A stretch of 49,175 nucleotides of DNA from Escherichia phage P818: the sequence record ON062054.1; one strand, 5' to 3'. Shown here one piece after another: positions 10,353 through 45,074 of the stretch; the first letter of the stretch is position 1; each line of letters opens with the position of its first letter. A program made the translations under genes and the position numbers. The notes under the pieces were generated by a model. The model saw only the letters and a list, made by a program, of their open reading frames with translations, was not told the DNA's origin and did no database searches.

Positions 10353-10396
10353 GGGATTACCTCCAATAAAAAAGCCCCCCGTTAGGAGGCTTTATT

Positions 10397-10744
10397 CTAC
10401 ACCGCTGTGAAGGCTTCTACAATGGTGCATTTTACGACAAGAAGGCCTCGACCGATTGGCTGAGTATTCAGCGTGTCAGGCTTCAATAGGAAGACGCCGA
10501 TCTTGTCCTCCGGTGGGGTAAAGGCAAAGGCTTTCAGTCTGTGCGATCGCAAAAATTCGCGCACTTCTTTCCAGTCCTTGCCAACGTAACTGATTGCGTA
10601 CTCTCGTCGCTCAGTGTTGTAGCCAGACGATGCAACCTGGCGGAATCCATTACCAAACTGCACCTGCCTGTCATTGTTGGTGACGGTCATCACGCCGCCA
10701 CCATCCTGAACCTGTACGCACCACTTGAAAACGTCTAGGGCCAT
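10397..10744 (-). CDS. Minor tail protein (lambda M-like)
   Basis: 115 aa directly downstream of the tape measure gene. Confidence 0.5.
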   Translation of the reverse strand: MALDVFKWCVQVQDGGGVMTVTNNDRQVQFGNGFRQVASSGYNTERREYAISYVGKDWKEVREFLRSHRLKAFAFTPPEDKIGVFLLKPDTLNTQPIGRGLLVVKCTIVEAFTAV

Positions 10745-10747
10745 TTA

Positions 10748-13654: not shown

Positions 13655-13665
13655 AAAACCCCCAT

Positions 13666-13690
13666 ACGAAAAAAGCGCCCGTAGGCGCTA
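13666..13690 (-). terminator. Hairpin/attenuator between chaperone and tape measure genes
   Basis: AGCGCCCGTAGGCGCT palindrome with flanking T/A runs. Confidence 0.45.
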
Positions 13691-14319
13691 TTATTTTTTG
13701 TGCATCTGCTTAAGCGCTTCCGCTTCCATCACACGCACATCATTTAAGGCCATTTCTTCACAATCTATTTTATAGATTCGAAATAGCATAGGCAAGACAT
13801 TATAATCAAGCCCGTAAGCTCCGGCTCCGGCAGATCTCCATTGCGTTTGCATCGCGGTGAATACTTCCCATGACTGGTATGTTTCCTCGTCGAACTGCAA
13901 TATCTCCGGCTCTTCGTTGTCGTAGTCTTCACGGGTTAATCCGTATGCCTCAAGCTCTGAGTCGGTGGGCGCTCGCCTGAATAATAGCTCGACCGCCCGT
14001 TTTAGTTTTTTACTCGGTAGCCAGCCAGCGCTTGAGTGTAGGTTGAGATCAGGCCACCAACAACGGCAGGGTAACTATCAACAAGCTTATTGATGTTTTC
14101 ATCATTGAACTCGTCCTCAAGTTCCCACCCGCTAGCCAGGGATTTTACAAACTGAGCGCCAGTCTGTTTTTCTGCATTTTTCAGCGTGGCGTTAAGTTCG
14201 GATGACGTTAGCGCCTTGACAGTGAATGAAAACGAAGCTTCAACGCCGTTCGGCAATACGAATTTAACCGGAAGCGGGAAGTCTGGCAGGCGTTCAGATA
14301 GGGTTACTTTAAAGCTCAT
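13691..14319 (-). CDS. Tail assembly chaperone fusion (G-T-like) by predicted -1 frameshift
   Basis: The -1 frame is open from the slip site at the 3' end of the 14002-14319 ORF through 13691. Confidence 0.5.
14002..14319 (-). CDS. Tail assembly chaperone (lambda G-like)
   Basis: 105 aa between major tail and tape measure genes; ends with slippery heptamer. Confidence 0.6.
   Translation of the reverse strand: MSFKVTLSERLPDFPLPVKFVLPNGVEASFSFTVKALTSSELNATLKNAEKQTGAQFVKSLASGWELEDEFNDENINKLVDSYPAVVGGLISTYTQALAGYRVKN
14005..14011 (-). other. Slippery heptamer A_AAA_AAC (programmed -1 frameshift site)
   Basis: Minus-sense GTA AAA AAC TAA; plus-strand GTTTTTT at 14005-14011. Confidence 0.5.
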
Positions 14320-14392
14320 GGTTTTTTCCTCTTTGTTTGAATTGGTGATATTAAATCACAAATAAAAAAAGGGGACAATAGCCCCCCTTGCA

Positions 14393-15064
14393 TTACTCAG
14401 ATTCTTTCATGTGCGTGTATTTGCCATCAAGCGAGATGGTCAGAATGGTCGTTTCATCTTCGTTCATCACCGTGTTAGGGATGTCATCGAAAGATGGCGT
14501 ACCGGAGAACGTGCGGATAGGATAGCTCGCTTTAGGTACAAACATTCGCATAGCGCGGGTCTTGCCGTCTTCGTCGTAACCAATCAGTAGCTGAGTGATT
14601 GGGTTGGAGTAGTCGAAGTCGAACGTATACGCGATGGACGTCGCAGATTTAAAGGTCGGGATCTGCTTTTCACGGTCATCTGAAAGACACTGCTTGGTAT
14701 AGAACTGCTGCTCGCCACCAGATTTTGCGATGTCGCTCACGCATGGAATCTCAATCCAGCTTTCGATCTTAACGAAGGTGGAGGCGCCGCCAGCGGGGAA
14801 CTTGTTAAGGTCAGCCGTGGAAGTGCTCTTATCGCCTTCAAGCGTGATTGATGTGTCGCTAACCACTTCTTTTACGCGCATTACGCGGTTTTTAAATGCA
14901 GCCCACACGCTTTCCAGCACCAGGACGTAATCGCCTTTCACAATGCCAGTGGTTGACGCAACAGTCGCCACCGGATTTTCTGCGTTGCTAACTGCCGTAG
15001 CTTCAATCTCGGTAGCGGATCGGGTCTGCTCAATAAAGATTTGGGAACCGTTAGGAAGTGCCAT
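14393..15064 (-). CDS. Major tail protein
   Basis: 223 aa; strong AAGGAG RBS; position upstream of chaperone/tape measure. Confidence 0.6.
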   Translation of the reverse strand: MALPNGSQIFIEQTRSATEIEATAVSNAENPVATVASTTGIVKGDYVLVLESVWAAFKNRVMRVKEVVSDTSITLEGDKSTSTADLNKFPAGGASTFVKIESWIEIPCVSDIAKSGGEQQFYTKQCLSDDREKQIPTFKSATSIAYTFDFDYSNPITQLLIGYDEDGKTRAMRMFVPKASYPIRTFSGTPSFDDIPNTVMNEDETTILTISLDGKYTHMKESE

Positions 15065-15077
15065 AGTTAATGCTCCT

Positions 15078-15479
15078 TTATTCGTCGTGTTGTACTGTGA
15101 AGCGGATTGGAATTAACCAGCCTCTTTGTGATTTCTGCACGGGCTTTTGGCTCGCGCCTTCAAAAATAAAACCTACAGAAAGGATTTTACCATCTTCGAA
15201 GAAATTAGCAATTTCTTTCGCCAGCTTGCGTGCGTCATCCATGCCAGTATCAGGCGAAAAAACAATGCCAATCTGTACAAGGCCACGAATCCTGATACAC
15301 TTCCGGCTCAGAGACTTATACGTCTTCTCTGCCGGAATGTAATCAAACTTCAACCACGTAGAGCCATCATCAGGCTCGGTGAATGACACGTTCTCATACA
15401 TGATCGGGAATCGACTACCAAACTCACCATAAAGCGCCTTGCGCGCCGCGACCGCCAGGTCATAATCGTCATAAACCAT
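15078..15479 (-). CDS. Tail/neck protein (possible tail terminator)
   Basis: 133 aa; start refined to ATG with AGGAAT RBS, 11-nt overlap with upstream gene. Confidence 0.4.
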   Translation of the reverse strand: MVYDDYDLAVAARKALYGEFGSRFPIMYENVSFTEPDDGSTWLKFDYIPAEKTYKSLSRKCIRIRGLVQIGIVFSPDTGMDDARKLAKEIANFFEDGKILSVGFIFEGASQKPVQKSQRGWLIPIRFTVQHDE

Positions 15480-15912
15480 TTTTATTCCTTGATTCAATAA
15501 TTGCTTCTGCCATGTAAGATCTCAACCGGATAGCCACTAGACCAAGAACACCAGCGGGAGCTTGCTGTGAATGTCCATACTCCAGAGCATTTGCATAGAT
15601 CAGCATGTTAGAAAAATAGATGGTAGTTACCGCGCCGCCACGACCTAACGGCAATGCGTTAGCTGTTCGTATGCCTGCTGCAATGGTAGCGTTACCGGAT
15701 TTATCATACTCATTCAGCGCGTACATTGGGATGTGATTATAGGTTATCTGCCAGTTAGCTCTAAAGCGACCTGTATCAACTGGTGAGCCTTTGACTAAAT
15801 CGGCGTGTACAGCCTTGACGAACTCACGAATAACGTCATCAAGGCCTGATTTTACCTGCTTAATCCACTTCTCTATATCTCCCTGGAATTTCCTGACGAT
15901 ATAGTTAGCCAT
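15469..15912 (-). CDS. Neck / tail completion protein
   Basis: 147 aa; 8-nt overlap (ATGGCTAA) with upstream gene. Confidence 0.4.
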   Translation of the reverse strand: MANYIVRKFQGDIEKWIKQVKSGLDDVIREFVKAVHADLVKGSPVDTGRFRANWQITYNHIPMYALNEYDKSGNATIAAGIRTANALPLGRGGAVTTIYFSNMLIYANALEYGHSQQAPAGVLGLVAIRLRSYMAEAIIESRNKNGL

Positions 15913-16285
15913 GCGCCGCTACCTTACGCAAAATAGGGCGGTATGCGATAACGTGAGATTGAGTCGGGTTAACTGGTCGATTGTCAACTACGCGCCAGTG
16001 CTGGCCCTCAAGGATGATAATCATCCCGTTCTCAATCGGTGTAACGTTAGAGAAGAATGCCCGCTTGTCGCCCAGCTTGATAGATTCGCCATCAATCATG
16101 TGATAGCTGATCGCTCGCACAGCGCCGAACACTTTACCTCGAACCTCCGGCACTTTCACCTCTTCGCCGTCAACCATTTGGACACCGCCACCAGAGATGA
16201 TGATGTCTAATCCGACCTCATCGTTTCCAGAGAAGGCATTAATCCCCTGATCGGTAAGTCTTTGGATTTCATTATAATCAATCAT
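15905..16285 (-). CDS. Head-tail joining protein
   Basis: 126 aa; start refined to ATGA overlap with upstream gene. Confidence 0.4.
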   Translation of the reverse strand: MIDYNEIQRLTDQGINAFSGNDEVGLDIIISGGGVQMVDGEEVKVPEVRGKVFGAVRAISYHMIDGESIKLGDKRAFFSNVTPIENGMIIILEGQHWRVVDNRPVNPTQSHVIAYRPILRKVAAHG

Positions 16286-16695
16286 CGCACGCACCCCCGC
16301 GTCCGTATGCCAGAGATAAGGCCGAAGCCACCGCCTTTCTTCTTGTTAAGAACGTCGAACATCTTACCCCATGGGGTTTGTGTAATCTGACGCCCGTCAG
16401 TGTTCTGAGTTACAGAGCCGTAGCCAGTGGAAAATTCACCGCTCAGGGAGAATGACGTTACTCGCCGTGAGTAGTTCTCCAGACTTTCATTCTCTCCCTT
16501 CATTGCACCATCCAAAAACATCAAGTGCATGGTGTACAGTGCCAGCGCTTTGTAATAATCCTTACCGAATTTATTCTTGCACACAAAGGATTCAGCCAGC
16601 ACCATCCACGCAAGAAATGTTGCAGGATCAACCTTCTTTAATGCTGGGGCTAGTTGGCACATAAACTCGAAAGCCTTAGTCTGATCTTCATTCAT
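16282..16695 (-). CDS. Head-tail adaptor / head completion protein
   Basis: 137 aa; start at MNEDQ with GGAGG RBS after a terminator hairpin. Confidence 0.4.
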   Translation of the reverse strand: MNEDQTKAFEFMCQLAPALKKVDPATFLAWMVLAESFVCKNKFGKDYYKALALYTMHLMFLDGAMKGENESLENYSRRVTSFSLSGEFSTGYGSVTQNTDGRQITQTPWGKMFDVLNKKKGGGFGLISGIRTRGCVR

Positions 16696-16711
16696 ATTTT
16701 GCCTCCACAAT

Positions 16712-21883: not shown

Positions 21884-22408
21884 TTATTTGATGTCTATCT
21901 TACCATGGTTTTCATGGTATCCAAGCCTGAACTCGGCTGATTTCCTGGCGCAAACCGCGTCAAACCAATCAGAGAAGTAGCCTAGTGATTTCCTCTCTCC
22001 CTTTCCTGAGTTTCCAATGAAAGCCCACCACTTAGACCTTGACTCATACCAATAAACACCTACACATCCACTCCTATTTCTGACAGATCTTTTCGTGTTC
22101 CTACCGTTATCCTTATGGGTAACAACCCTTAGATTCTCCCTCCTATTATCGTTCCTTACGTGATTTTTGTGGTCTATCTGCATTCCCTCTGGTATGTCTC
22201 CATTATCGAATTCCCACGCAAACCTATGAGCAAGAAGAGACACTCCACCTATCGTTATCCTCACATAACCATCAGCATCAATGGTTCCAGCTATATCACC
22301 TGGGTAGAATTTACTTTTCTTAACCTTAATCATCCATCTAACATGAGTTCCGTCATATGTTAGATAACCTTTGGCAATGTCATATATTTCACTTCTTGAG
22401 CCCTGCAT
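21884..22408 (-). CDS. HNH endonuclease with AP2-like domain (copy 1)
   Basis: 174 aa; DHKNHVRNDNRRENLRVVTHKDNGRN motif; TAATG overlap with large terminase gene. Confidence 0.8.
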   Translation of the reverse strand: MQGSRSEIYDIAKGYLTYDGTHVRWMIKVKKSKFYPGDIAGTIDADGYVRITIGGVSLLAHRFAWEFDNGDIPEGMQIDHKNHVRNDNRRENLRVVTHKDNGRNTKRSVRNRSGCVGVYWYESRSKWWAFIGNSGKGERKSLGYFSDWFDAVCARKSAEFRLGYHENHGKIDIK

Positions 22409-23997
22409 TACATCCCCTTACTTAATCCGGCTAAACGCTTCATTCTAGATACTGGATCATCCAACATGTTCATCTCAAAGTTTACAGCATCAAAGACGTT
22501 ATCGCAAATGTCATCGTGAGGAGATGAATCATCAAACGTGAATGAAACCAACTCAACCTCCATGTCACTTAACATTTCGTGAGACTCGGGAAAAACACAG
22601 CGCCCCGCTTTCATGATTGGCGCCGCGTCCATTGCGCGAGTTACCTTATCCGTATTTCGCTGAACTGGCGTAATGTCAATCGGTAGTTTCTTGTTGATTG
22701 ACTGGATCAGGCCAGTACCGCTCGCCTTGTCTTCAATGTAAACCTTGCGCAGTGAAGTCTTGTTATCCTTCGCCCATTTGAAGCAGTTGCCATAAAAGTT
22801 AAGGGCCATCTTTTCAAGTTCCGGCGCTTCCCACTTACCGCGAATGCCGTCGATGAAATATACGCGGTCCTTATACTTACCCCACAAAACAAATACGCTG
22901 TAGTCGTGTATTTCCTCTGCTTTCTGCGCTGTATCCGCAGTAGTGAACAGGTATTCGAAGCGTTCCGGTTTTGGCATGTTGGCTTTTTCGCCGTCGCCGT
23001 AATACTGGAACCAGTCCGACTTAAACGCGTTACCGCCAAGCGCGATTGGCTTCTGCTGATACTGAGACTCAAATGTGTACAGGTCAGCTTCGCGCAACGC
23101 CAGTAGGCTTTCTGCGCTCTCCTTCGCGGGCCAGAAAGAGAAGTGCTCAACCCCGTCAATCATTACCGATGGGGACGATAGCACGTCTTTATCAAATTCC
23201 TCTTTCAACCAGTCAGGAAGCGTGTCTCTGTATTCCTCAGTTACCAGCGCCGGAATGATTACCTGCTCAAACTTCATGCCACCCATACCGCCATTCATCA
23301 GGAACCAAGTCGCATCGTTTACGTGTAGCCGCTGCTGGACAACAACGCATGGTGTCTTGTCATTCATTCTTCGCGATCGAACGGTGTTCTTTAACAGCGT
23401 ATGACCAGCCTTTCTCTTTACTGCTGAGTATAGGTCTTTCGGCTTCTCAGGGTCATCAAGCGTCAGCATTCCGGTGAAGCCATCATCCATATAACCGCCA
23501 CGCTTACCAGTTACCTGACCACCGATCGCACGTGAAGTTAGAGTTAACCATGCCTTTTCCTTTGAGTTTAGAGCGGTAATGTCACCACCTGAAGCCTTTG
23601 CTAGTTTGCAGGGCCAAAGCTCCTGGAACTCATCAGAGCCGATAATCTCACGCGTCCTGATCCCGTTATCCTTAACGAGACTATCAGAGAATGAGAGGTT
23701 AAGATTCCTTATCTTCTCGCTCCTGAACATACAATACACTGGCATGTGAATGGAGAAGATCTCAGTCTTGCCAGAGCCTGGGGTAATGTTGAATATGATG
23801 TTTTGTATCTCACCTTTGATTATCTGCTCAACCTTCCAGCAAAGGTAGTTGAAGTGCCAATTAGACCTAAACTTTTGAGCCTGTATCAAAGCGAACCATA
23901 TGCGCATAAAATCACTAAAAGACCTCTCGCTCATCACCTTTATTACCGCCTTTTCCTTTGGTGTCAGATCTTCCCAAATCAATATCTTGTTAGACAT
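22408..23997 (-). CDS. Terminase large subunit
   Basis: 529 aa; Walker A-like TPGSGKTE near the N-terminus. Confidence 0.85.
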   Translation of the reverse strand: MSNKILIWEDLTPKEKAVIKVMSERSFSDFMRIWFALIQAQKFRSNWHFNYLCWKVEQIIKGEIQNIIFNITPGSGKTEIFSIHMPVYCMFRSEKIRNLNLSFSDSLVKDNGIRTREIIGSDEFQELWPCKLAKASGGDITALNSKEKAWLTLTSRAIGGQVTGKRGGYMDDGFTGMLTLDDPEKPKDLYSAVKRKAGHTLLKNTVRSRRMNDKTPCVVVQQRLHVNDATWFLMNGGMGGMKFEQVIIPALVTEEYRDTLPDWLKEEFDKDVLSSPSVMIDGVEHFSFWPAKESAESLLALREADLYTFESQYQQKPIALGGNAFKSDWFQYYGDGEKANMPKPERFEYLFTTADTAQKAEEIHDYSVFVLWGKYKDRVYFIDGIRGKWEAPELEKMALNFYGNCFKWAKDNKTSLRKVYIEDKASGTGLIQSINKKLPIDITPVQRNTDKVTRAMDAAPIMKAGRCVFPESHEMLSDMEVELVSFTFDDSSPHDDICDNVFDAVNFEMNMLDDPVSRMKRLAGLSKGM

Positions 23998-24056: not shown

Positions 24057-24575
24057 TCAAATCTTATCAAGTACGCTTTTCACGGCATCCTCAATCGTTT
24101 GAGTGTCATTCACTACATTGCTTACGTTGACCTCAGCCGCCTTGTCGATACCAATGTCTTTGCCTACGAATCCGGCGTTGATAAGGTTGGACGCAGCTAA
24201 CTGATATTTCTGTTCAATAATTACTGAGTCGATGAACTCCATTACCTCAGAGAATCCAGGCGACGCGCGCCAGCTTTGGATCGCACCGGAGGTAACGCCG
24301 CAATAAAGCTGGAAGCCGTTGAGCGTGAACACTCGCGGCTTGTGCACTAAGTTCTCGGTGACAACACCCTGGAAGCTCGCCGTTTCGATTGCCTTGATTG
24401 CCTGGTCCTCGGCCCATGAGAAATACTTAACCGCCAGGTTGAATACAGTCTCAGGTGTCATTGGATGGCGATGGTTCAGATTGGCAATGTCGCCATACTT
24501 TTTATTGTATAGCTCTTTGAAGTTACCGATTCGAACCTTCTCGTTAGCGTGACTGGTGAAGTTTTCGTCTTTCAT
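24057..24575 (-). CDS. Putative terminase small subunit
   Basis: 172 aa immediately upstream of large terminase; GGGGG RBS. Confidence 0.5.
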   Translation of the reverse strand: MKDENFTSHANEKVRIGNFKELYNKKYGDIANLNHRHPMTPETVFNLAVKYFSWAEDQAIKAIETASFQGVVTENLVHKPRVFTLNGFQLYCGVTSGAIQSWRASPGFSEVMEFIDSVIIEQKYQLAASNLINAGFVGKDIGIDKAAEVNVSNVVNDTQTIEDAVKSVLDKI

Positions 24576-30292: not shown

Positions 30293-30512
30293 GCGAACGA
30301 TTGCGAACGATTTCGAATTTAGCCATTATGACGCCAAGGCTTTTTATCATAAGAGCTTCACCTATCGTCTTCACTATGTACTCATTGCCATCAACCTTGA
30401 TGTAGTATGAGCCATTAAAACAAGGTATTGGCTTAGCCACGTATATCCCGCCATTTACAACTGAAAGGTTGTGGTGATTTGCTTGCCTTACATACACACA
30501 TTTTATAAGCAT
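30288..30512 (-). CDS. Hypothetical small protein
   Basis: 74 aa; 1-nt overlap with upstream gene; 3' end contains a tandem 10-bp duplication. Confidence 0.5.
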   Translation of the reverse strand: MLIKCVYVRQANHHNLSVVNGGIYVAKPIPCFNGSYYIKVDGNEYIVKTIGEALMIKSLGVIMAKFEIVRNRSQ

Positions 30513-31078
30513 TAATATTCACCGTTCAGGAGAGATTTCGCTTTCCGGTAGAACTGGATGGCCTTCTCCACCTCATCGGCATCATAGCCATGAATCATGT
30601 CTGAGCTTGCCTGCAATTTGCTATGAGATTTGCGCTCAACCGATCTCCATGAGTCGCACCACTTGTGAATGTCTCTCCCATACATGCCCACCAGGTATGG
30701 GTGTGCATATATCTTGTCACCAATAAGGCAAATGATTCCCGCGTCCTGTAGTGATGGTAGGATATTGTCAATCAGGTTATTCATTACTCCATTACGCTCG
30801 ACGAACGGCTGGACCTTTCTGATCGCCTCATATGTTGAGCGAACTCCCACAACGCCTTTTCCATTTATCGTTTGCTTCCAGATCTTTTCAACCACGACGC
30901 ATTGTTCACGACTTAGGTTTGCGCGACGCATAACTTCCACTTCGCACCAGTACTTTTGTGACTGTCGGTATCCGTTAGCATTGATTGCTACTCGTAGTGG
31001 TGGAAGCCCATCTTCCGTAGCAATCTTCATAATCTGCTCATCTGTCAGCTTCTCTTCGTTAAAATCAAACATCCCCAT
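30512..31078 (-). CDS. Internally deleted paralog of the 34720-36303 replication ATPase
   Basis: 188 aa; N-terminus and a later block nearly identical in protein to the 527-aa protein; central Walker A/B region absent. Confidence 0.6.
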   Translation of the reverse strand: MGMFDFNEEKLTDEQIMKIATEDGLPPLRVAINANGYRQSQKYWCEVEVMRRANLSREQCVVVEKIWKQTINGKGVVGVRSTYEAIRKVQPFVERNGVMNNLIDNILPSLQDAGIICLIGDKIYAHPYLVGMYGRDIHKWCDSWRSVERKSHSKLQASSDMIHGYDADEVEKAIQFYRKAKSLLNGEY

Positions 31079-31669: not shown

Positions 31670-31888
31670 GTGTTATCAGTGCAAATTTTCTGAATAGTTA
31701 CAGATTTATGCCAATTTCGCCATATATAGCTAAATGTAAAGTCTGCGTACAGTTTGTAGATAAAGATTTTTAGCAAATTGGCCCCTACATGCCTTTTTAT
31801 TCCTACAATGTCGTCATATTCCTACAAGTGTAGGAAAATATCATAGAAAACTATCGCAATATCACATATCAACCATCTACATTATCTA

Positions 31889-32000
31889 CATATATATATA
31901 TTAATAATAATAATATAGATAAATGGTTATTATATAAGGATATTTTAATGTAACCATGGCGTAATTAAGCGTGATGTGCGTACATGATTCCCACGGAGTG
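31889..32000. repeat. Control-region element, copy B
   Basis: (TA)n plus (ATA)n tract followed by GATATTTTAATGTAACCATGGCGTAA; about 70% identical to 2586-2690. Confidence 0.6.
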
Positions 32001-32116
32001 ATGGCGTGTCTACATGGCATAACATAAATAACGCGTATGCGATGAAATCGTGTGGCGGAAAATCCTACCAGGCGATCAGGGGATCAGATCTCACCCCATC
32101 ATTCCCCCCATAAATG

Positions 32117-32215
32117 AATCATTGCTCAATTCGCAACAATCGAAAACATCATTGCAATAGATGCAATATTGCTATATGTGCAATAGTCATGAGAATCATT
32201 GCAATAGCTGCAACA
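32117..32215. repeat. Iteron-like cluster (ATCATTGCAATAG-type repeats)
   Basis: At least four direct copies of TCATTGC(A/T)(A/C)A(A/T)T(A/C)G within about 100 bp, just upstream of motif copy 10. Confidence 0.55.
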
Positions 32216-32231
32216 ATCCATAAATCGAACG

Positions 32232-32249
32232 AATAGCACTTTTTGCTAA
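32232..32249 (+). promoter_or_regulatory. Dyad motif copy 10
   Basis: AATAGCACTTTTTGCTAA; 23 bp then TATTGT then TACCTCATCGAAACGAAGGAG and ATG at 32301. Confidence 0.55.
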
Positions 32250-32300
32250 TGACCGATCAGGTGTGATTCGCTATTGTTACCTCATCGAAACGAAGGAGAT

Positions 32301-32735
32301 ATGAAGATGAAGAACGGCGTAATTTACAAGCACAGTGACGGAACTACTCGGTTCGTCACGACCTCAGGCCGGATGTATATTTGGGCTTACGGAGCCTGGC
32401 GGTTCAAGGTACAGATGCATGAGGCGACGTATAATATGTTCCTCCGCGCTGCACGACTCAAAGATAACAAGGTGTTCGTTGCGAAGAGTCGCAAGGTATT
32501 CATGGATAATCGCGTCGCGTTCGATCCTATTGACTACCAGGCGGTTGAGTTCACTGGTCTAAGGTTGAGTAAAATTCGGTTGTTGCGCAGCGAACAGATT
32601 GCAATGATTCAGCAAAATTCGGCTATTGCGCACGCCACGGAAGCACGACATCGCCTCCTGACTGGTTATCAGCCCATCATCACGCCGACGCCGTTTTACG
32701 TGCATAAGCAACGACCACCGAAAATCCATAAATAG
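32301..32735 (+). CDS. Hypothetical early protein
   Basis: 144 aa; start refined to ATG after AAGGAG RBS. Confidence 0.55.
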   Translation: MKMKNGVIYKHSDGTTRFVTTSGRMYIWAYGAWRFKVQMHEATYNMFLRAARLKDNKVFVAKSRKVFMDNRVAFDPIDYQAVEFTGLRLSKIRLLRSEQIAMIQQNSAIAHATEARHRLLTGYQPIITPTPFYVHKQRPPKIHK

Positions 32736-33256: not shown

Positions 33257-33265
33257 GGAATCATG

Positions 33266-33505
33266 ATGAAAATTCGCTGCAAAAACGTAATCACTAGCAC
33301 AGACAAGAAGGTTTTAACACCATTCGTAAAAGGCTCTGTATACGACGCTGAGCCGCTAATCATTAACGGCAAGACAATCCCGAACGAATGGGTTATTAAT
33401 GGCGCTGAGCGACCGCACAAGCACGATTCTGGCTGGATTGCTATCGCAGGCTGGGAGGTCGGAATGTTTATCCCTGGTATTGCAACTTTTGACAAGGTGA
33501 AATAA
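33266..33505 (+). CDS. Hypothetical small protein
   Basis: 79 aa; start at second ATG (5 nt after AAGGAA). Confidence 0.5.
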   Translation: MKIRCKNVITSTDKKVLTPFVKGSVYDAEPLIINGKTIPNEWVINGAERPHKHDSGWIAIAGWEVGMFIPGIATFDKVK

Positions 33506-34719: not shown

Positions 34720-36303
34720 ATGTTTGATTTCAACGAAGATAAATTGTCAATCGATCAGGTAATGGCTGTAGCCGCTGCCGACAACCTGCCGCCTTTGCGC
34801 GTTGCCATTAATGCGAATGGGTACAGGCAGAGCCAGTCGTTCTGGAAAGCTCCAACAGAAATCGACTCGGGCGGTGACAAATATCCGGTTATCTCACTTG
34901 GTAACGATTATGATGTCGTTGGCAAGCTGTCAAGCAATGCCGCCCGCTCTGTCCAGTTCCCTGAGTCGTCAGCATACATGCATTTCCTCGGATGCATATC
35001 AGCCGCCATGCTGGGCCGCTTTACGGTTGAGTATCACGGAACACAACAGCCGACCGCTCTGTATGTCGTAACCAGTCAGCCACCATCGACAGGTAAATCA
35101 GCCATCAACTCACTTTCGCTGGCCCCGATGATCGCAGAGACTGAACGACTCAACGAGATCCGAAAGCGCGACCGCAAGAAGATTATGGCTAAGCTTTCCG
35201 CTCTATCCAAGGAGATGAAGCAGGAGAAATCACCATCTGACATGGCGGCGCTGTTTGAGGAAAAAGAAGAACTGGAAGAAAAACTGGAACGCCTTTGTGA
35301 CATCGTATTCCCCGTATCCGACACCACGCCGGAAGGTCTTGCGCGAATCAACAACCGCCAGGGCAACTTTGCAGTAATCTCGGATGAAGCAACGAGCGTG
35401 AACTCACTGTTAGGCATGACCTATGGTGACGGCTCAAAGAAAACGAACAGCGAGCTTGTGCTTAAGGCTTGGGATGCTGGTAACGTATCTATCGCCCGTG
35501 CGAACGCAGACAATAACATGAGCTTCATTGCGATGGGCTGCATATCTGTAATTGCACAGGATGAAACAATAAACGCGATCATGAATGCTGGTGCGCGTGG
35601 TATCGGTGTGTCAGAACGTTTCTTGCTTGTGCGTGAGAAGTCATTCCTTGGCGAGCGTGTATTCGTTGACGAAAAAGGCGAATCAACATACGAGCCGATT
35701 GATGGCGGACTCAAGGCGGACTACTTCCGTCTGGTCCATGAGATCATGAGCGAACACGAAGTCAATCTGACAGTGAGCACATCGGCGATGAAATATCTCA
35801 ACCGTGCGCGTCAGGATATGGAACCTCACCTTGCGGACGGCGGGAAGTATTCACACACAATGCTTCGCGGCGCGCTGGGTAAGTTCGATAAGCAGGCCAT
35901 CAGGATCGCAGCTGTTCTTCACACTGTGCGTAACTGGTTTAATCCCAATGGCGGGAGTCCGCAGAAGTCCAGAGAGATTGAGCTTGACACAATGCAGGAA
36001 GCGGTAATTATGTTCCAGGAACTGAGTAAGACTTATCTGTCATCTGCAAACGCTGCTGGTCATGCTGGCGACCATGCGGAGATGAATAAGCTGATCGATA
36101 TTCTGATCAAGCAAGGTAAGAACGGGAAAGGCGTTGTAGGTGTACGATCCCTATATGAAGCGGCTCGCAAGGTTAAACCCTTTGAAGGGCAAAGTGGTGT
36201 AATGACTCGCATCAAAGATCACCTGATCCCTATGCTTGATGAGAAGAACTATACGTGCCTGATTGGTGATAAAATTTACATTAATCCGCGACTGCTGGGG
36301 TAA
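34720..36303 (+). CDS. P-loop NTPase, putative replication initiation/helicase-loader-type protein
   Basis: 527 aa; Walker A PSTGKS and Walker B VISDEA; N- and C-terminal blocks shared with the 30512-31078 paralog. Confidence 0.6.
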   Translation: MFDFNEDKLSIDQVMAVAAADNLPPLRVAINANGYRQSQSFWKAPTEIDSGGDKYPVISLGNDYDVVGKLSSNAARSVQFPESSAYMHFLGCISAAMLGRFTVEYHGTQQPTALYVVTSQPPSTGKSAINSLSLAPMIAETERLNEIRKRDRKKIMAKLSALSKEMKQEKSPSDMAALFEEKEELEEKLERLCDIVFPVSDTTPEGLARINNRQGNFAVISDEATSVNSLLGMTYGDGSKKTNSELVLKAWDAGNVSIARANADNNMSFIAMGCISVIAQDETINAIMNAGARGIGVSERFLLVREKSFLGERVFVDEKGESTYEPIDGGLKADYFRLVHEIMSEHEVNLTVSTSAMKYLNRARQDMEPHLADGGKYSHTMLRGALGKFDKQAIRIAAVLHTVRNWFNPNGGSPQKSREIELDTMQEAVIMFQELSKTYLSSANAAGHAGDHAEMNKLIDILIKQGKNGKGVVGVRSLYEAARKVKPFEGQSGVMTRIKDHLIPMLDEKNYTCLIGDKIYINPRLLG

Positions 36304-36853: not shown

Positions 36854-37234
36854 TCGAAAAAAGGTCCATATTGTAAATGAGAAAAGCAATAGGCTAATTA
36901 GAATTAAAGCAAGACCAAATGCAATCCTTCCACCTCCTTCCTCATTCCTGATCTCAATCTTATCAGCGATGATGTTGTCAGCCTTGATGCTTGATGTGCT
37001 GACGGATTTCCCGTTGGAAGTATCAACCTTCCCAACCTTTGAATCTTTGATAGTGGTGTCATTTTCGTTTGACTTATCCACCTTTCCGGTAACGCCTACC
37101 GCTTGCTTCACGTTCTCGGCCCCAGCCTGTGCTGTAACTTCCGGCTTGCTGCCAATTAATCCGGTCAGCGCAGATGTTGCTGAGCACCCAGATAAAGCCA
37201 TGCACATTACTAACGCTGCAATCCACTTAAACAT
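36845..37234 (-). CDS. Unimolecular spanin (u-spanin)
   Basis: 129 aa; N-terminal lipoprotein signal with lipobox LSGC and C-terminal TM helix; start embedded in 3' end of endolysin gene. Confidence 0.65.
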   Translation of the reverse strand: MFKWIAALVMCMALSGCSATSALTGLIGSKPEVTAQAGAENVKQAVGVTGKVDKSNENDTTIKDSKVGKVDTSNGKSVSTSSIKADNIIADKIEIRNEEGGGRIAFGLALILISLLLFSFTIWTFFRKK

Positions 37235-40777: not shown

Positions 40778-41012
40778 ACGCAAAATCTTCGGGGCAAGCA
40801 AGCATATAGTCTTCAAGGTCTTTCCGTATTGCACGGCTCCAGCTATTAAGTGGCTTATCTCTAATCTCTTCAAATGACATATCCAGATCTGAGAACTCCC
40901 AAGCGTCACCATTAAACCCCGCTTTAGTTAGCTCCTTGCAGACGATCGCGCGGAATAAAAGATACTGACCATTGTGGTTTAGATTAATTTTCATACCGCT
41001 CATTTTAAACAC
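40776..41012 (-). CDS. Hypothetical small protein
   Basis: 78 aa; 8-nt overlap with methylase gene. Confidence 0.4.
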   Translation of the reverse strand: MFKMSGMKINLNHNGQYLLFRAIVCKELTKAGFNGDAWEFSDLDMSFEEIRDKPLNSWSRAIRKDLEDYMLACPEDFA

Positions 41013-41733
41013 TCCGTTTACGTGGTTTCTTACGGCTTACGCCAGGGCAAATATCAGCGACGCTAACATATGTAGTCTTCTGCGTCTCGCCTTCTTTCAG
41101 TTTTCGCATTACAAAAATAACAGAGCCTTTATTATTACCATCGACAGGCTTTCCGGTCAGGCCTGATATGAATGCCAGCCTTCCGGTTCGGCAGTATTCC
41201 TGCTGGTCAATTTCTGTTATCTCCGCCTCAATCCAGATGATTTCAGCCGCGTTGCGTCTGGCTTCTGCAAACCACGCCGTTGAGTTATCACCAGGAAGCA
41301 ACATATCAATCTGATTGTTGTGTTCCATCTGCTCAATCGCTTTCTTCACGAAAGGATCTGGATGTGAGTATGGCGGGTTAAGCCATATGTGCTTATTGCT
41401 ACCCCAACAAATTTTGAGACAGTTCACTTGCTCGCTGTAGAACTTTTCGCAAACAGCATTGTTAGCGCTGGCGGCGGCGTCAATGTCATACTTCCCATAA
41501 CGCGACTCCATCCATGAGATCACTTCTCTGTCAGTGGCCCATAGGTCACGAACTGCGTCAGGCGTCTTGCTTCCGGCGTATCTGTTTCCAGTTACCTGAT
41601 AGAAGGTGTCTGGCTTAACCGCCTGGTAATGACCATTTCCAGGAACAAGCGCATTAGTAACAAAATTTTCACGCTCGATCTGCTCAAAGATAACGAATGC
41701 GTCATGAGTATCCTTGTCGTTTGAGTCGATCAT
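41005..41733 (-). CDS. DNA N6-adenine methyltransferase (phage Dam-like)
   Basis: 242 aa; NPPY catalytic motif. Confidence 0.75.
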   Translation of the reverse strand: MIDSNDKDTHDAFVIFEQIERENFVTNALVPGNGHYQAVKPDTFYQVTGNRYAGSKTPDAVRDLWATDREVISWMESRYGKYDIDAAASANNAVCEKFYSEQVNCLKICWGSNKHIWLNPPYSHPDPFVKKAIEQMEHNNQIDMLLPGDNSTAWFAEARRNAAEIIWIEAEITEIDQQEYCRTGRLAFISGLTGKPVDGNNKGSVIFVMRKLKEGETQKTTYVSVADICPGVSRKKPRKRSV

Positions 41734-42515: not shown

Positions 42516-44502
42516 CCATAGTAAAAGATTTGTTTGCGATAATATCTTGAGACTTCTGGTTCTTACGGTGTGTAATCCTTAATGGAGCTCGGAAAAGGTG
42601 AGCATTAGTCATAATCATTTTAGCATTACGCAATCTGCCAATTCTAAAAGCCTCGGTCCTGTTCTCTATGTGAGCCGAGCAAAATGCTTTCCATTTTACA
42701 GAGCAAACTCGATGGTCTGACTCTGGGAAAAACGTCTCATATGCTCGGAACCTATCCCCACTGTGAGCCATGACCTCATATGAAGCAACAATACCTGACT
42801 GGTTCTTTGTTAAACAAATCTTGAAATCATAAACTCGCAACCAGTCCCCTTTGCGGTACATTTTCCCAGATAACTTAGCGTTTGGGTCTATTAGCATCTC
42901 TCCGCAGCATCGACAGTTTTTAGCTGCAACATCATTCTTCTCTCTACAACCTTTCTTAATAATAACTTTTGTCTGTTGGTCCTCTATATCTTCACACAAG
43001 CGAAACTGAAAGAAGTGCTCACAACGCTTCCCGTCAATTACGTTATTGCAACGACGAGCAAAAGGAGAGTTCTCATAACTACAGGCCGGACATATTCTTG
43101 GCCCATCACCGCCTTTGCGTGAAGACTTAAATTTCTGGTCCTGAACTTCCTCTATGATTGGGTCAAAGTATAATTCTGCCATGTCATCAAGGGTGCCAGC
43201 GAAGTCTAGTACCACGTGATCATCCTTAACCATCCCCATCTCCTTGTGCTTCTTCTTTAGGATACGCATACCTCGACCAAGCAACTGAATAAGCAGGGTG
43301 ATGCTTCCAACCTTGCGAAGAATTATTGAAGTATCCCACGGCGGGACGTTCACGCCGGTTGTGAGGCAACCAATCTGAAAGATGAATTTATACTTACCTT
43401 CAGCTGCGTCAGAAAGAATCTCACGACGCTTTTTCTCACCAGTAGAGTCAGTTACTATAGCCCAGGTTACACCCTCAGGAAGCGCCGCGGCTGCTTCCTC
43501 GCAATGCCGCTTGCCTGAGCAAGTTACTAGTGCTGCGTTACGATTTTCCATAAACTTGGCTGCGAACTGCATAATCTTTTGAGTCATGGACTGGTTTTGG
43601 TGAATTTTTTCCTGCATCGCATCCATTTCTTTCTTGCTAAAGTCTTTCACTCCATCACTTCCATCTGGAGCAAACTCGCTAAGGTCATAACCTAAATCGC
43701 CAACCTCGCCGTAAACAGTTGGCACAACAAACCGCAAATCAACCAGGTAATTGGTTGGCACCTGAATCACTGTTTTGCGCCAAAATCCACGGATATTTGG
43801 ATTGCTAACAACGATATGATCATTGTTGCGATACGGGCTACCAGTTAGGCCAAAGATACGAAGCTCTCGACCATACTTCTCACGACAACGACGTTTCATT
43901 TCAGTAATGATTAGCGTGTACTGCGCACGACCCGTGCCAAGCAATCCAGTATTAACGCCTTCCTTAAAAACCTTCTCACCTTTCTTTGTGCTCATTTGCT
44001 CAAATGTTTCTTCGTTCTCCTCGGCTTCAACGATATCCATGTGATCGACCATGTGGCACTCATCTATAGCTATAACGGCAGGAACATAGTCACCAAGCCC
44101 CTTAAATAAGCCGTTAGCCGCAGTTCCTTCGCTAGCAACTATGGTTGGGTAATAAACTGATTTAACGTTAAGGCCAGCGCAATAGACGCTATTACGAATG
44201 CCAAAATTGCGAAGCTCTTCGCTGTCCTGGCTCACGATCTCAGACTGGCGAGATAGCACCATATAAGGAAGCCCTAACTGTTCCATTCTCTTACCGATCA
44301 TGGCGAGAATGATAGTTTTACCAGCAGAAACCGACAGGTCTGCTATGAATGGGCTTTCATACTTCCCGATAGCCTTACCGATCGCATCAAATGTAACGCA
44401 CTGGAAATCGTAAGGAGTTATCTCTCCAAACGAGAATTCTCTCTTAATCTCTTCCATGCGATTTTTATCAAAGTTGGCGACCATTTTTTCAACGGGTAAC
44501 AT
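42508..44502 (-). CDS. SF2 ATP-dependent DNA helicase with C-terminal zinc-ribbon region
   Basis: 664 aa from ATG with AAGGTG RBS (ORF track start is upstream TTG); Walker A GKT, DECH box, Cys-rich C-terminus. Confidence 0.8.
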   Translation of the reverse strand: MLPVEKMVANFDKNRMEEIKREFSFGEITPYDFQCVTFDAIGKAIGKYESPFIADLSVSAGKTIILAMIGKRMEQLGLPYMVLSRQSEIVSQDSEELRNFGIRNSVYCAGLNVKSVYYPTIVASEGTAANGLFKGLGDYVPAVIAIDECHMVDHMDIVEAEENEETFEQMSTKKGEKVFKEGVNTGLLGTGRAQYTLIITEMKRRCREKYGRELRIFGLTGSPYRNNDHIVVSNPNIRGFWRKTVIQVPTNYLVDLRFVVPTVYGEVGDLGYDLSEFAPDGSDGVKDFSKKEMDAMQEKIHQNQSMTQKIMQFAAKFMENRNAALVTCSGKRHCEEAAAALPEGVTWAIVTDSTGEKKRREILSDAAEGKYKFIFQIGCLTTGVNVPPWDTSIILRKVGSITLLIQLLGRGMRILKKKHKEMGMVKDDHVVLDFAGTLDDMAELYFDPIIEEVQDQKFKSSRKGGDGPRICPACSYENSPFARRCNNVIDGKRCEHFFQFRLCEDIEDQQTKVIIKKGCREKNDVAAKNCRCCGEMLIDPNAKLSGKMYRKGDWLRVYDFKICLTKNQSGIVASYEVMAHSGDRFRAYETFFPESDHRVCSVKWKAFCSAHIENRTEAFRIGRLRNAKMIMTNAHLFRAPLRITHRKNQKSQDIIANKSFTMDD

Positions 44503-44600: not shown

Positions 44601-45074
44601 ATGAATGCAACTGATAAGCGTACTCTTAACGGCAATAACGGAACTATCCGCACAGAAGATAAGAAGCAGCGTAAGCGACCGTCAGGTTACTATGTTCTCA
44701 AGGATGAAGTAAAGGCCGGATTAAGAGCGCGACTTGATATTGTATTTGAGTTCTACGGCAGCAAGGCGAACATGGCTAAGCAATTAAAGGTTACTCGACA
44801 GGCCGTTGAAGAATGGTTTAAGCGTGGAATGATGTCGGCACGCGGCGCTCAACTGGCGCACAACAGATATAAGCGAACTGGCGAAGGGTTCCGCGCTACA
44901 TTCTGCCGCCCTGATCTGCAATTCGACGGGAACGGCAAGCCGCTAACGCTGCGTTGCAAAAAGCGTCACATGCTGCGCGTCGTCACCGAGGCTGAACTAG
45001 CCACTAAGCCTGAATGTCGCTCATGGCGAAAAATTAAAGCAGCAAACGAAGCAGCACGGAAAGCTAAAGAATGA
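44601..45074 (+). CDS. HTH DNA-binding protein (Cro/YdaS-like), candidate regulator
   Basis: 157 aa; HTH-like segment SKANMAKQLKVTRQAVEEWFKRG; basic C-terminal half. Confidence 0.55.
   Translation: MNATDKRTLNGNNGTIRTEDKKQRKRPSGYYVLKDEVKAGLRARLDIVFEFYGSKANMAKQLKVTRQAVEEWFKRGMMSARGAQLAHNRYKRTGEGFRATFCRPDLQFDGNGKPLTLRCKKRHMLRVVTEAELATKPECRSWRKIKAANEAARKAKE

Follow-up and report, generated by a model that had tools for sequence, protein, structure and literature searches.

A conserved four-palindrome array near the predicted packaging start of the T1-like Escherichia phage P818

Four 17-bp imperfect palindromes with the pattern ATTGCW-N5-YGCAAY were identified in the genome of Escherichia phage P818 (ON062054.1), a T1-like phage of the Drexlerviridae; the whole 49,175-nt stretch analyzed is referred to below as the window. 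Together they provide eight TTGCW/WGCAA half-sites over 94 bp (32121-32214), with the packaging (pac) start of close relatives on one side and the first rightward early promoter on the other. The palindrome array is real and apparently undescribed before. The preferred reading, to which we give a probability of about 40%, is that the array serves as a platform for a dimeric protein and marks the region where pac packaging begins. Its close rival, itself quite possible, is an upstream operator array, perhaps one read by the host regulator CytR.

Identification of the palindrome array

The original prediction described iteron-like direct repeats at this place, with at least four copies within about 100 bp. 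The quoted repeat sequences are present at their positions and the copy number holds, with four exact sites in the array, but each unit proved to be an imperfect inverted repeat (Table 1). As proposed at the time, a repeat search was used to define unit and spacing: it recovered a 17-nt family at 32151, 32168 and 32198, as well as a 31-nt direct pair at 32116-32146 and 32193-32223, and site 4 repeats the site-1 unit in direct orientation (74% over 31 nt). The half-sites are 5-6 bp long around centers of N5-N7, and three of the four sites carry an 'ATC' prefix. The start-to-start spacing of 30/17/30 bp corresponds to 2.9/1.6/2.9 helical turns; phasing is thus not uniform, which answers the earlier question of helical phasing in the negative.

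Table 1. Features of the control region and terminase genes in the P818 window
Feature	Position	Strand	Description
Large terminase subunit (TerL)	22408-23997	-	Pfam Terminase_6C; phrog_38, E 3e-108
Small terminase subunit (TerS)	24057-24575	-	Pfam GP3_package, E 2e-8; phrog_606, E 4e-54
AT-rich ATATA/AATAAT block	31880-31945		Position conserved in MSK, UDF157lw, T1 and TLS
Putative first pac cut zone	32066-32089	-	Placed by homology; packaging would run leftward
G-poor run	32100-32120		CATCATTCCCCCCATAAATGAATC; between cut zone and site 1
Site 1	32121-32137		ATTGCTCAATTCGCAAC; flanks 5' GAATC, 3' AATC; exact ATTGC-N7-GCAAY
Site 2	32151-32167		ATTGCAATAGATGCAAT; perfect 6-N5-6 palindrome; 5' flank ACATC
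Site 3	32168-32184		ATTGCTATATGTGCAAT; abuts site 2, junction TGCAA-TA-TTGCT
Site 4	32198-32214		ATTGCAATAGCTGCAAC; flanks 5' GAATC, 3' AATC
T1-like direct repeat (motif copy 10)	32233-32249	+	ATAGCACTTTTTGCTAA; starts 18 bp after site 4
Putative sigma-70-type promoter	32249-32277	+	-35 ATGACC (32249-32254), 17-nt spacer, -10 TATTGT (32272-32277)

The clustering of the sites is far beyond chance. The exact pattern ATTGC-N7-GCAAY occurs six times in the 49-kb window, four times within the array; when one mismatch is allowed, 31 occurrences are found against 10.5 +/- 4.8 in shuffled sequences, and none of 100 shuffles reached 31. For the exact core TTGC-N7-GCAA, half of the eight occurrences fall into the 94-bp array (shuffles: mean 0.77, maximum 4), the others being scattered singletons at 11224, 12358, 21179 and 36794. 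Within the window the four-site cluster is confined to this place, the single locus looked for in a pac signal. On its own, the word TGCAAT shows no window-wide enrichment (57 observed, 47 expected); therefore, the signal is one of local clustering. An inverted partial copy, GAATCATTGCAAT, at 32598-32610 lies inside a gene that differs between relatives and was treated as a chance match.

The array is non-coding. Two open reading frames cover it, at 32114-32236 on the plus strand (40 aa) and at 32126-32239 on the minus strand (37 aa), and some GenBank records annotate a coding sequence over it as 'membrane protein', as would suit the view that the repeats are a by-product, either of a small coding gene or of chance or recently duplicated functionless sequence. 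This explanation is highly improbable: the plus-strand frame contains stop codons and/or lacks an ATG in most relatives and that of the minus strand is interrupted in Rogunaviruses and in JeanPiccard, which led us to reject a coding function, while the clustering far above chance and the concentration of conservation on the half-sites speak against a by-product. A structured RNA or single-stranded DNA was rejected as well, since folding of the array as single-stranded DNA gave no structure signal (z = -1.27) and the sole Rfam match was at chance level (E 0.79) and outside the array.

Conservation of the array among relatives

The four-site array is kept in 128 phage records (Nouzillyvirus, Braunvirinae and Rogunavirinae), so the conservation in related genomes on which the original prediction had been staked was found, and about 22 relatives examined in detail retain all four sites with the 30/17/30 spacing. 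Column conservation is 0.97 in the half-sites (0.96 for those of site 1) and 0.83 in the central bases, with six to nine different central heptamers per site among relatives; in the case of site 2, nine heptamers occur among 21 relatives, at a half-site conservation of 0.97. The half-sites persist although the structural and packaging proteins of these phages are only 40-65% identical. This pattern strongly supports the prediction of a cooperative protein-binding array. Of the earlier proposal that an initiator or regulator binds here cooperatively, the protein-binding part is thus favored by the difference between half-sites and centers, and a regulator is a live option, while the 'iteron-like' label did not hold.

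Beyond the four-site clade, a two-site core is present in many other Drexlerviridae lineages, and a site-1 homologue with a GCAAC-AATCA flank was found in T1 and in the lineages L176, L190, L263 and L264. Site 3 is specific to the four-site clade, and in other lineages GTCAAAATGAC palindromes occupy its place. The sites are absent altogether from TLS, L200 and L266; TLS has different palindromes at the equivalent position, which in its genome are confined to the same control-region locus. In all lineages inspected, a comparable G-poor run rich in CATC/AATCA is found ahead of the sites or of the elements that replace them. Site clusters are unique, with one in the P818 window, one in MSK and one in the first 180 nt of T1. 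In a scan of IMG/VR, the loose pattern gave mostly chance matches and the tight pattern only seven known phages.

Relation of the array to the packaging start

The ends of related genomes place the start of packaging next to the array. For MSK, PhageTerm gave a start at 36862 on the forward strand (p 1.6e-9; PMC8421802), the UDF157lw record was reorganized by PhageTerm (PMC10838988), and the SU57 end was inferred with the same program in a paper stating that the pac site 'was not identified' (PMC7718038). These ends, which come from two subfamilies, map to the left of site 1, at 38 bp for MSK, 32 bp for position 1 of UDF157lw and 55 bp for SU57. In T1, the 2800-bp terminal repeat begins at record position 1, which lies inside the homologous site pair and aligns with the right edge of site 2; the records of Rtp, Rogue1, ESCO41 and XT34 open inside the array or at its edge, those of ESCO41 and XT34 directly after site 4. 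The pac of TLS, placed by restriction mapping and by a 6-bp resemblance to P22 (PMC11447400), has two palindromes about 83 bp away, at the place that corresponds to the array. Packaging from the ends of the relatives runs leftward, toward TerS/TerL, as in T1. We infer the same pac cut in P818, at a zone where GATC occurs three times in 22 bp (32070-32091).

In the proposed mechanism, the four two-fold-symmetric sites would be filled by a sequence-specific dimeric DNA-binding protein, so that the bound complex would mark this single place on the concatemer, with the array as the non-packaged flank of the pac region. A P22-gp3-like TerS together with TerL, the subunit that would make the pac cut, may then place the first cut in poorly conserved DNA, 30-55 bp left of the array, after which heads would be filled leftward by a headful mechanism. 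We infer both the binding of a protein to the sites and its use in packaging. As TerS shows no covariation with the sites, the sites may be recognized through a phage accessory protein or one of the host.

Several observations weigh against a packaging role: the cut-zone DNA is not homologous between subgroups, the termini data are the ends of relatives and not those of P818, and some lineages (TLS, L200, L266) lack these sites. Ring-shaped small terminases are not expected to read palindromic dimer-type sites, direct repeats being a better fit. Proximity to the cut discriminates weakly, because every element placed upstream of the first rightward promoter would of necessity fall within about 150 bp of the cut. 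A weak lead exists in lambda, where a stretch of ninG (42838-42854) is similar to T1 site 1-17 and identical to it at 11/11 positions of TGGTGTGCAAC; a T1 packaging start in lambda was reportedly mapped between genes P and Q by Drexler in 1984.

Repeated boxes for terminase or accessory proteins are known from SPP1 (pacL/pacC/pacR), P1 (pac hexamer clusters) and lambda (cosB R1-R3, with IHF). Like these, the P818 array is a cluster of short boxes at one locus, beside and not at the predicted cleavage point, with a cut expected in non-conserved DNA tens of bp away and packaging that would be unidirectional, and the GATC cluster of the cut zone recalls the Dam-sensitive hexamers of P1 pac. Unlike these, the P818 boxes are 17-bp palindromes and not direct or asymmetric boxes, do not covary with TerS and lie 7.5 kb from the terminase genes, their packaging role in a T1-like phage being a predicted one. 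P22 gp3 is the nearest TerS relative by Pfam, and its pac, as quoted in PMC11447400, is a single asymmetric 22-bp sequence inside gene 3, unlike the array.

Relation of the array to the early promoter

As originally described, the array lies directly upstream of motif copy 10 and of the first rightward ORF, which starts at ATG 32301 or 32307. Motif copy 10 belongs to a 21-nt-type repeat with 17 copies in the window (at most one mismatch; 0.06 expected), described for TLS as the intergenic direct repeat aaATAGCACnnnTTGnTAAAA (German et al. 2024, PMC11447400). The copy beside the array has a conservation of 0.99 and sits at the UP-element position of a sigma-70-like promoter. This promoter is putative, because it was read from the sequence and was not reported by the consensus promoter scan; in relatives, a -10-like hexamer (TATAGT, TATGAT) is found at the matching distance. 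No promoter-like site was found within the array. The 21-nt repeat resembles the array in that its TAGCA-N5-TGCTA is a 5-N5-5 pseudo-palindrome one base off the array half-site, but its 17 copies are genome-wide and all along transcription, whereas the array occupies one locus; when compared with ATAGCACnnnTTGnTAA (oriented with transcription, about 76 nt before the start codon), none of the array units matched, only their neighbor at 32233-32249.

This neighborhood is the basis of an alternative in which the array plays no direct part in packaging and instead serves the first rightward early promoter as an upstream operator set. A phage dimeric helix-turn-helix regulator, for which the candidates are a Cro/YdaS-like 157-aa protein (44601-45074) or a small early protein, would bind the four palindromes at about -70 to -165 and repress or activate early rightward transcription. 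Two-fold-symmetric 17-bp sites with half-sites of 5-6 bp are the classic geometry of Cro/CI-type operators, and P818 has four such sites in tandem, ending 18 bp upstream of the repeat/promoter unit. Near the promoter, the control region is pieced together from repeats that differ by lineage (GGAATAA/TTATTCC sets, GTCAAAATGAC, TAGACCAATCGGTCTA), a pattern to be expected of exchangeable regulator sites, and the Cro-like protein is 88-89% conserved within the four-site clade versus 52-53% in T1 and TLS. We nevertheless hold a phage operator to be somewhat unlikely: the array is clear of the core promoter, with 35 bp between its end and the putative -35, array sites are missing from the remaining 16 repeat-type promoters, and the Cro-like protein, whose Pfam matches fall under the curated cut-off, has a recognition helix that does not follow the sites. 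The lambdoid OR/OL operators, with three 17-bp pseudo-palindromes for Cro/CI dimers, share with the array the symmetric tandem sites in a divergent early control region, the conserved half-sites and the variable centers. They differ in that the P818 sites are clear of -35/-10, that no repressor gene adjoins the array, the sole Cro-like protein being 12 kb off and showing no covariation, and that the T1-like phage is virulent.

In the other form of the operator alternative, a host regulator would bind the cluster, the best candidate being CytR, the LacI-family cytidine repressor, which would gate early transcription and/or pac access by the nucleoside pool. The CytR consensus has been given as TGCAA-N2-3-TTGCA, as the octamers AATGCAAC/GTTGCATT and as AYGTGCAAC-N10-13-GTTRCATT, with half-sites inverted or direct and zero to three helical turns apart, and CytR normally works with CRP (PMC3454398). 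Its half-sites are the same TTGCA/TGCAA pentamers as in the array, where six of the eight are perfect, and two inverted pairs, one at N2 (TGCAA-TA-TTGCT, where sites 2 and 3 meet) and one at N13 (ATGTGCAAT-N13-ATTGCAAT, between sites 3 and 4), fit the published consensus. T1 carries GTTGCATG and AATGCAAT, and elsewhere the pentamers are rearranged into direct AGTTGCAWGATGA repeats (L260) or TGCAA-N4-TTGCA (Weberviruses), CytR operators likewise tolerating varied arrangements. The pentamer cluster is the global maximum of the window (7 per 100 bp; shuffle maximum 5), and a host reader would explain why none of TerS, the helicase termini and the Cro-like protein covaries with the sites. On the other hand, a 5-bp word match is weak evidence, and outside the four-site clade the pentamer clusters are within shuffle expectation. 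The array would also depart from natural CytR operators in lying in phage DNA and in having eight half-sites instead of two; no convincing flanking CRP boxes were recognized, as a visual check for TGTGA-N6-TCACA gave poor half-matches only, GGGGATCAGATCTCAC at 32079-32094 and TGTGATTCGCTATTGT at 32262-32277. On balance, a set of CytR sites appears unlikely.

Comparison with replication origins

The four repeats share their intergenic region with an AT-rich block, and they could be the iterons of a replication origin, bound by the DUF3987 helicase (34720-36303) and/or its 188-aa paralog assembling beside this block. The replication origin of T1-like phages is not defined in the literature. Helicase identity within the four-site clade is 90-93%, compared with 40-65% for most other proteins, and the recombinant L168 combines a 91% identical helicase core with divergent N and C termini and no array. 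The C-terminal domain shared by the helicase and the paralog is modeled as a winged helix (pLDDT 82.6); its Foldseek matches are weak (E at least 0.04) and nearly all to winged-helix proteins, including ORC/Cdc6. An origin is still very unlikely, given that the presence of sites is uncoupled from the helicase termini, that the paralog is missing from T1, TLS and apparently L176/L190, and that about 175 bp, with the predicted pac cut among them, separate site 1 from the AT-rich block. Moreover, the units are palindromes at 30/17/30 and not single-orientation phased direct repeats, and no covariation with an initiator DNA-binding domain was found. The TLS study states that no iteron-like repeats exist and does not mention the palindromes (PMC11447400). 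GC skew was rejected as origin evidence, as it merely follows the direction of transcription.

We compared the array with iteron origins, namely lambda ori (four 18-bp iterons in gene O plus an AT-rich region), P4 ori/crr and the origins of SF3 helicases such as SV40 site II. The four internally symmetric sites are like the lambda iterons, and the AT-rich block in the region and a phage helicase with a predicted winged-helix end domain are further likenesses. In contrast, the spacing of the array is irregular, the AT-rich block lies about 175 bp off, and the array is neither inside nor beside the helicase gene and is uncoupled from the end domains of the helicase.

Candidate readers of the sites

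Proteins that might read the sites were checked for covariation with site presence. TerS was rejected on this ground. A signature (FQG[VDE]V.E versus FQGR.YQD) first separated eight lineages with sites from three without, but failed when TerS-anchored metagenomic loci were added, as L263 has the 'no-site' signature and two sites; its TerS is 74-75% identical to those of L200/L202, which have no sites, versus 51% to that of P818. The P818 protein is 56% identical to its MSK counterpart and 55% to that of T1. The specificity co-evolving with TerS that is looked for in a pac was thus not seen. The recognition helix of the Cro-like protein is equally uncoupled from the sites, reading THQTIQQW in L176/L190 (sites) and THQVIQQW in L199/L200 (no sites), and this candidate was also discarded.

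The ATPase at 34720 and its short paralog, suggested as binding proteins in the original prediction, did not stand up either, since the sites do not follow their shared N- and C-terminal domains when T1, L176 and L190 are compared with TLS and L168. Identities of the N/C termini are 36/52% in T1 and 48-50/51-52% in L176/L187/L190, all with sites, versus 60/79% in L168 and 56/61% in TLS, both without; L177 is also site-less. The short paralog is present solely in the four-site clade and absent from T1 and TLS, and a tblastn search in L168-L207 found the C terminus of the helicase alone, so it appears to be absent from L176/L190 too. DUF7174, the first leftward gene, was rejected because it is found both in lineages that have sites and in lineages that lack them, and its identity within most of the clade is just 28-57%. 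The failure of covariation for TerS, the helicase and the Cro-like protein suggests a reader that has not been considered, possibly a host protein.

Implications for T1-like phages

T1 is one of the original 'T' phages, and its pac sequence and replication origin are still not defined. The conserved four-site array, at a single locus 30-55 bp from the inferred ends of three relatives, is a concrete, mutable target for the pac and origin questions. It may be useful for engineering of T1-like phages, in pac-carrying transducing vectors, and for linearizing the genomes of over 100 database records consistently. That TerS, the helicase and the Cro-like regulator do not covary with the sites is informative in itself. 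An improbable extension is that a protein other than TerS reads the packaging start of the T1 family, a CytR-like host dimer or a phage accessory protein that on the four palindromes would set the first cut and gate the early promoter. If true, packaging initiation would be coupled to a host metabolic signal, for example the nucleoside pool arising from T1-type degradation of host DNA.

Architecture of the intergenic array

The window covers almost the whole genome of a siphophage of the T1-like type (Drexlerviridae) and matches most closely the Nouzillyvirus phages p111, P817 and GaoY1-9D (90-95% identity around the array). The array lies in a divergent intergenic region of 695 bp, with a minus-strand gene block to its left and plus-strand early genes to its right. 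The strings quoted in the original prediction of iteron-like direct repeats are present there, and these repeats are real and clustered; however, they are most simply described as four imperfect palindromes, ATTGCW-N5-YGCAAY. A repeat finder grouped 32151, 32168 and 32198 into one 17-nt family and paired 32116-32146 with 32193-32223 as direct copies of 31 nt. Sites 1 and 4 share GAATC/AATC flanks, and site 2 directly abuts site 3. The start-to-start distances of 30, 17 and 30 bp correspond to 2.9, 1.6 and 2.9 helical turns; thus, the array is symmetric in layout and not uniformly phased.

The clustering of the sites is not due to chance: four of the six exact matches to ATTGC-N7-GCAAY in the 49-kb window fall inside the 94-bp array. 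With at most one mismatch, 31 matches were found versus 10.5 +/- 4.8 in shuffled sequences (0 of 100 shuffles reached 31), and the exact TTGC-N7-GCAA core occurs eight times versus a shuffle mean of 0.77. Separately, the first rightward ORF, which most relatives lack, contains GAATCATTGCAAT once more, exact and inverted, ~400 bp beyond the array; this stretch corresponds to the left portion of sites 2 and 4 with its flank.

Coordinates of the array and associated features in the window
Feature	Position	Strand	Sequence or remark
TerL, large terminase subunit	22408-23997	-	left-hand gene block
TerS, small terminase subunit	24057-24575	-	left-hand gene block
188-aa protein	30512-31078	-	helicase paralog
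Gene block left of array	begins 31605	-	DUF7174 protein, then 188-aa protein, eventually TerS, TerL
Second repeat set	31800-31839		TTCCTACA twice, direct, at 31801 and 31820
18-bp palindrome	31820-31837		TTCCTACA-AG-TGTAGGAA
GATC cluster	32070-32091		CGATCAGGGGATCAGATCTC
Site 1	32121-32137		ATTGCTCAATTCGCAAC
Site 2	32151-32167		ATTGCAATAGATGCAAT
Site 3	32168-32184		ATTGCTATATGTGCAAT
Site 4	32198-32214		ATTGCAATAGCTGCAAC
T1-like intergenic repeat	32233-32249		ATAGCACTTTTTGCTAA; 18 bp after site 4
Putative sigma-70-type promoter	32249-32277
Early genes right of array	begin 32301 or 32307	+
Inverted copy of GAATCATTGCAAT	32598-32610	-
80-aa early protein	33263-33505
DUF3987 helicase	34720-36303	+	among rightward early genes
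Dam-like methylase	41005-41733		phage-encoded
Cro/YdaS-like 157-aa protein	44601-45074

Conservation of the array

Conservation in related genomes, on which the original prediction had in part been made to depend, is extensive. BLAST with the array alone as query retrieved 128 phage records, every one with at least 80% identity. The four sites and their 30/17/30 spacing are kept in the ~22 relatives inspected, including Nouzillyvirus (p111, CJ19, ESCO41), Braunvirinae (MSK, SU57, three Piccard phages, TR3, CEB_EC3a, Rtp-like phages) and Rogunavirinae (UDF157lw, C119, AHP24, Opt-719, Sf12, Sd1, phiEB49). Over 21 distinct sequences, column conservation is 0.97 in the half-sites, 0.83 in the central seven bases (6-9 different heptamers per site), 0.85-0.89 in the inter-site spacers, 0.70-0.76 in the left flank and 0.57 in the promoter spacer. 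Recent common descent alone does not account for this conservation: the structural and packaging proteins of the window share no more than 40-65% identity with their MSK and UDF157lw counterparts, often being closer to T1 and TLS, and the first rightward gene varies among array-bearing phages. Together, these observations are strong evidence for selection on eight half-sites predicted to be contacted by protein.

Marked mosaicism was observed across the whole window. The tail and head genes (about 8300-16700) are 65-80% identical to T1/TLS versus 35-60% to MSK/UDF157lw. The helicase, the 80-aa early protein, the Cro-like protein and a DUF7244 protein share 81-93% identity with MSK/UDF157lw, and their T1/TLS counterparts are absent or 45-71% identical.

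The array was rejected as a gene: a 40-aa plus-strand ORF has stops or lacks an ATG in most relatives, and a 37-aa ORF on the minus strand is interrupted in Rogunaviruses and JeanPiccard. The GenBank records of AHP24 (AHP24_65), AHS24, CEB_EC3a, BUCT-XGG-1 and Phagiculus carry a "hypothetical" or "membrane protein" CDS over the array; such calls are probably spurious, since the reading frames are not conserved between relatives. The array gave no single-strand folding signal (z = -1.27) and no Rfam match.

Helicase-anchored and TerS-anchored loci from IMG/VR and metagenome assemblies extended the comparison. A two-site core (a G-poor run, ATTGC-N7-GCAAC-AATCAA, ~13 nt, RTTGC-N7-GCAAY) is found in T1, PHB17-like phages and the uncultured lineages L176/L187, L190, L263 and L264, to which the clade of the window adds sites 3 and 4. 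The slot of these two sites holds, in other lineages, GTCAAAATGAC palindromes (one or two copies) and/or TTATTCC/GGAATAA sets; lineage motifs were seen there in L176, L190, L263, L264, L171, L197, L204-L232 and at the T1 record end. Inverted sets of two TTATTCC and GGAATAA(T) lie just upstream of the first rightward repeat in T1, Weberviruses, L171/L197, L264 and L266, the L168 version being GGAATAAT tandems; Weberviruses have TGCA-rich clusters with differing spacings. Among the loci examined, the sites are absent from the TLS-like, L200 and L266 lineages.

The putative rightward promoter

The T1-like intergenic repeat, already described for TLS (PMC11447400), occurs in 17 copies in the window (others at, e.g., 32732, 34213 and 44572), none of them before the first leftward genes. 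The 21-nt repeat is a pseudo-palindrome, TAGCA-N5-TGCTA, and matches at 13 of 15 positions YAGHAWATTWTDCTR, which we take to be the Lrp consensus. A -10-like hexamer follows 22-23 bp downstream (TATTGT in the window, TATAGT or TATGAT in relatives), with a weak -35, ATGACC, 17 bp before TATTGT, so that the unit spans 32233-32277. This putative promoter was not called by a consensus promoter scan. With the -10 and -35 so placed, the repeat would sit where an UP element does, and the array would cover roughly -70 to -165. Copies of the repeat, 22-23 bp ahead of a conserved -10-like hexamer, may occupy the UP-element or class-II activator position of weak sigma-70 promoters. In the main rival reading, nearly as probable as that of a pac-proximal platform, the array would serve as a set of upstream operators of the first rightward promoter, bound either by host CytR or by a regulator of the phage.

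The packaging start in relatives

T1-like phages package by a headful mechanism from a pac within this untranslated region, the sequence of which was never defined (PMC7718038, PMC11447400, PMC8421802). For MSK, PhageTerm put the packaging start on the forward strand at 36862 (p 1.6e-9; PMC8421802); for UDF157lw, the deposited record had been rearranged with PhageTerm (PMC10838988); and for SU57, the authors chose as the end a PhageTerm candidate where coverage changes abruptly (PMC7718038). In alignments with the window, the three ends fall 38 (MSK), 32 (UDF157lw) and 55 bp (SU57) left of site 1 (~32066-32089), and packaging would proceed leftward from this cut zone, towards the terminase genes. 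The T1 record starts exactly at the edge of a homologous site (1-17, GTTGCATGGTGTGCAAC; further sites at 31-47, GTTGCTTAGAATGCAAT, and 164-180), its first 2800 bp being annotated as a terminal repeat; the Rtp, Rogue1, ESCO41 and XT34 records likewise have their first base within the array or at its border. Position 1 of TLS, assigned by restriction mapping (PMC11447400), is ~83 bp from two overlapping, perfect 16-bp palindromes at the position of the array (TAGACCAATCGGTCTA; TAGACCGATTGGTCTA on the record strand; 49791-49820), which lie 9 bp upstream of the first rightward repeat and nowhere else in the TLS genome; L168 has one copy of this type. Taken together, the mapped ends and the T1 and TLS layouts show that the order of cut zone, G-poor run, palindromes and repeat-type promoter recurs in the array clade, T1 and TLS, the palindrome type depending on the lineage.

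Three GATC within 22 bp lie exactly in the zone of the relatives' virion ends, recalling the Dam-controlled hexamers of P1 pac. At the homologous place p111 has three; in the aligned sequence all three are retained by CJ19 and a single one by T1; clusters of 3-4 occur nearby in TLS and L168, and none in MSK-type phages. A second conserved repeat set, left of an AT-rich block, is kept in MSK and UDF157lw, and T1 has three CGATTAACA and TLS two TGTTCACG at its position. Its 18-bp palindrome is presumably identical to the EvgA box of E. coli (TTCYTACA-N2-TGTARGAA), and the repeat of TLS to what we take to be the P4 ori iteron, TGTTCACC.

We favour the array as a pac-proximal platform (probability roughly 0.4) because of where it lies, its restriction to one locus, the architecture shared across the family and a weak lambda lead. 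A dimeric protein would occupy all four palindromes, on the side that is not packaged, and terminase would cut 30-55 bp from the array before packaging leftward. Proximity argues weakly here, because an element upstream of this promoter could not be far from the cut in any case, and the absence of TerS covariation and the palindromic geometry speak against the platform. The lambda lead is AATGCGTGGTGTGCAAC in ninG (42838-42854), which lies between P and Q. It agrees with the T1 site GTTGCATGGTGTGCAAC at 14/17 positions, including all of the last 11 (TGGTGTGCAAC; BLAST E 1.2 for the whole lambda genome); the 10-mer TTGCATGGTG recurs in lambda at 27166, 33458 and 39901. Drexler reportedly mapped the T1 packaging start "esp-lambda" between P and Q.

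Candidate DNA-binding proteins

Three phage candidates (the helicase with its paralog, the Cro/YdaS-like protein and TerS) were tested by covariation, and all failed. The 188-aa paralog is a "headless" helicase, combining the helicase N-terminal ~45 aa and C-terminal ~90 aa without the ATPase; its C-terminal part is modelled as a winged helix (pLDDT 82.6), with weak Foldseek matches nearly all to winged-helix proteins. Helicases are 90-93% identical within the clade. In the recombinant IMG/VR contig L168, which lacks both array and paralog, the core is 91% identical to that of the window and exactly the two end domains diverge (N-terminal 57-60%, C-terminal 77-79%), which suggests exchangeable specificity or interaction modules. 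The helicase and paralog, proposed earlier as readers, do not follow the sites, which are present in T1 (termini 36/52% identical) and L176/L190 (~50/52%) and absent from L168 (60/79%), TLS (56/61%) and L177, despite the closer termini of L168 and TLS. With the sites uncoupled from the helicase termini and arranged as palindromes at 30/17/30, replication-initiator iterons, the leading idea of the original prediction, become very improbable.

The Cro/YdaS-like protein, with Pfam matches below cut-off, has almost the same recognition helix with sites (THQTIQQW) and without (THQVIQQW). For TerS, a signature splitting site-bearing from site-less lineages collapsed once more loci were added: L263 TerS (two sites) shares 74-75% identity with its counterparts in L200/L202 (no sites), against only 51% with that of the window.

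As none of these proteins co-evolves with the sites, a host protein may be the reader. Published half-sites of E. coli CytR are the same TTGCA/TGCAA pentamers as those of the array; of the published arrangements, TGCAA-N2-TTGCA recurs where sites 2 and 3 meet, and AYGTGCAAC-N13-GTTRCATT occurs between sites 1-2 and 3-4 (PMC3454398). CytR tolerates variable half-site spacing and orientation (PMC3454398), a flexibility that would be compatible with the diverse arrangements of other lineages. The pentamer cluster exceeds the shuffle maximum in the four-site clade only, and no good CRP boxes were found around the array. CytR is a candidate reader, a lead and not a finding.

Implications

Pac boxes, operators and iterons are all familiar classes of element; the array itself appears undescribed. 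The 2024 TLS re-annotation stated that iteron-like repeats do not exist (PMC11447400), the SU57 paper did not identify a pac site (PMC7718038) and the MSK paper searched for ATATA repeats only (PMC8421802). The array gives the long-open questions of the T1 pac and origin a simple mutational test.
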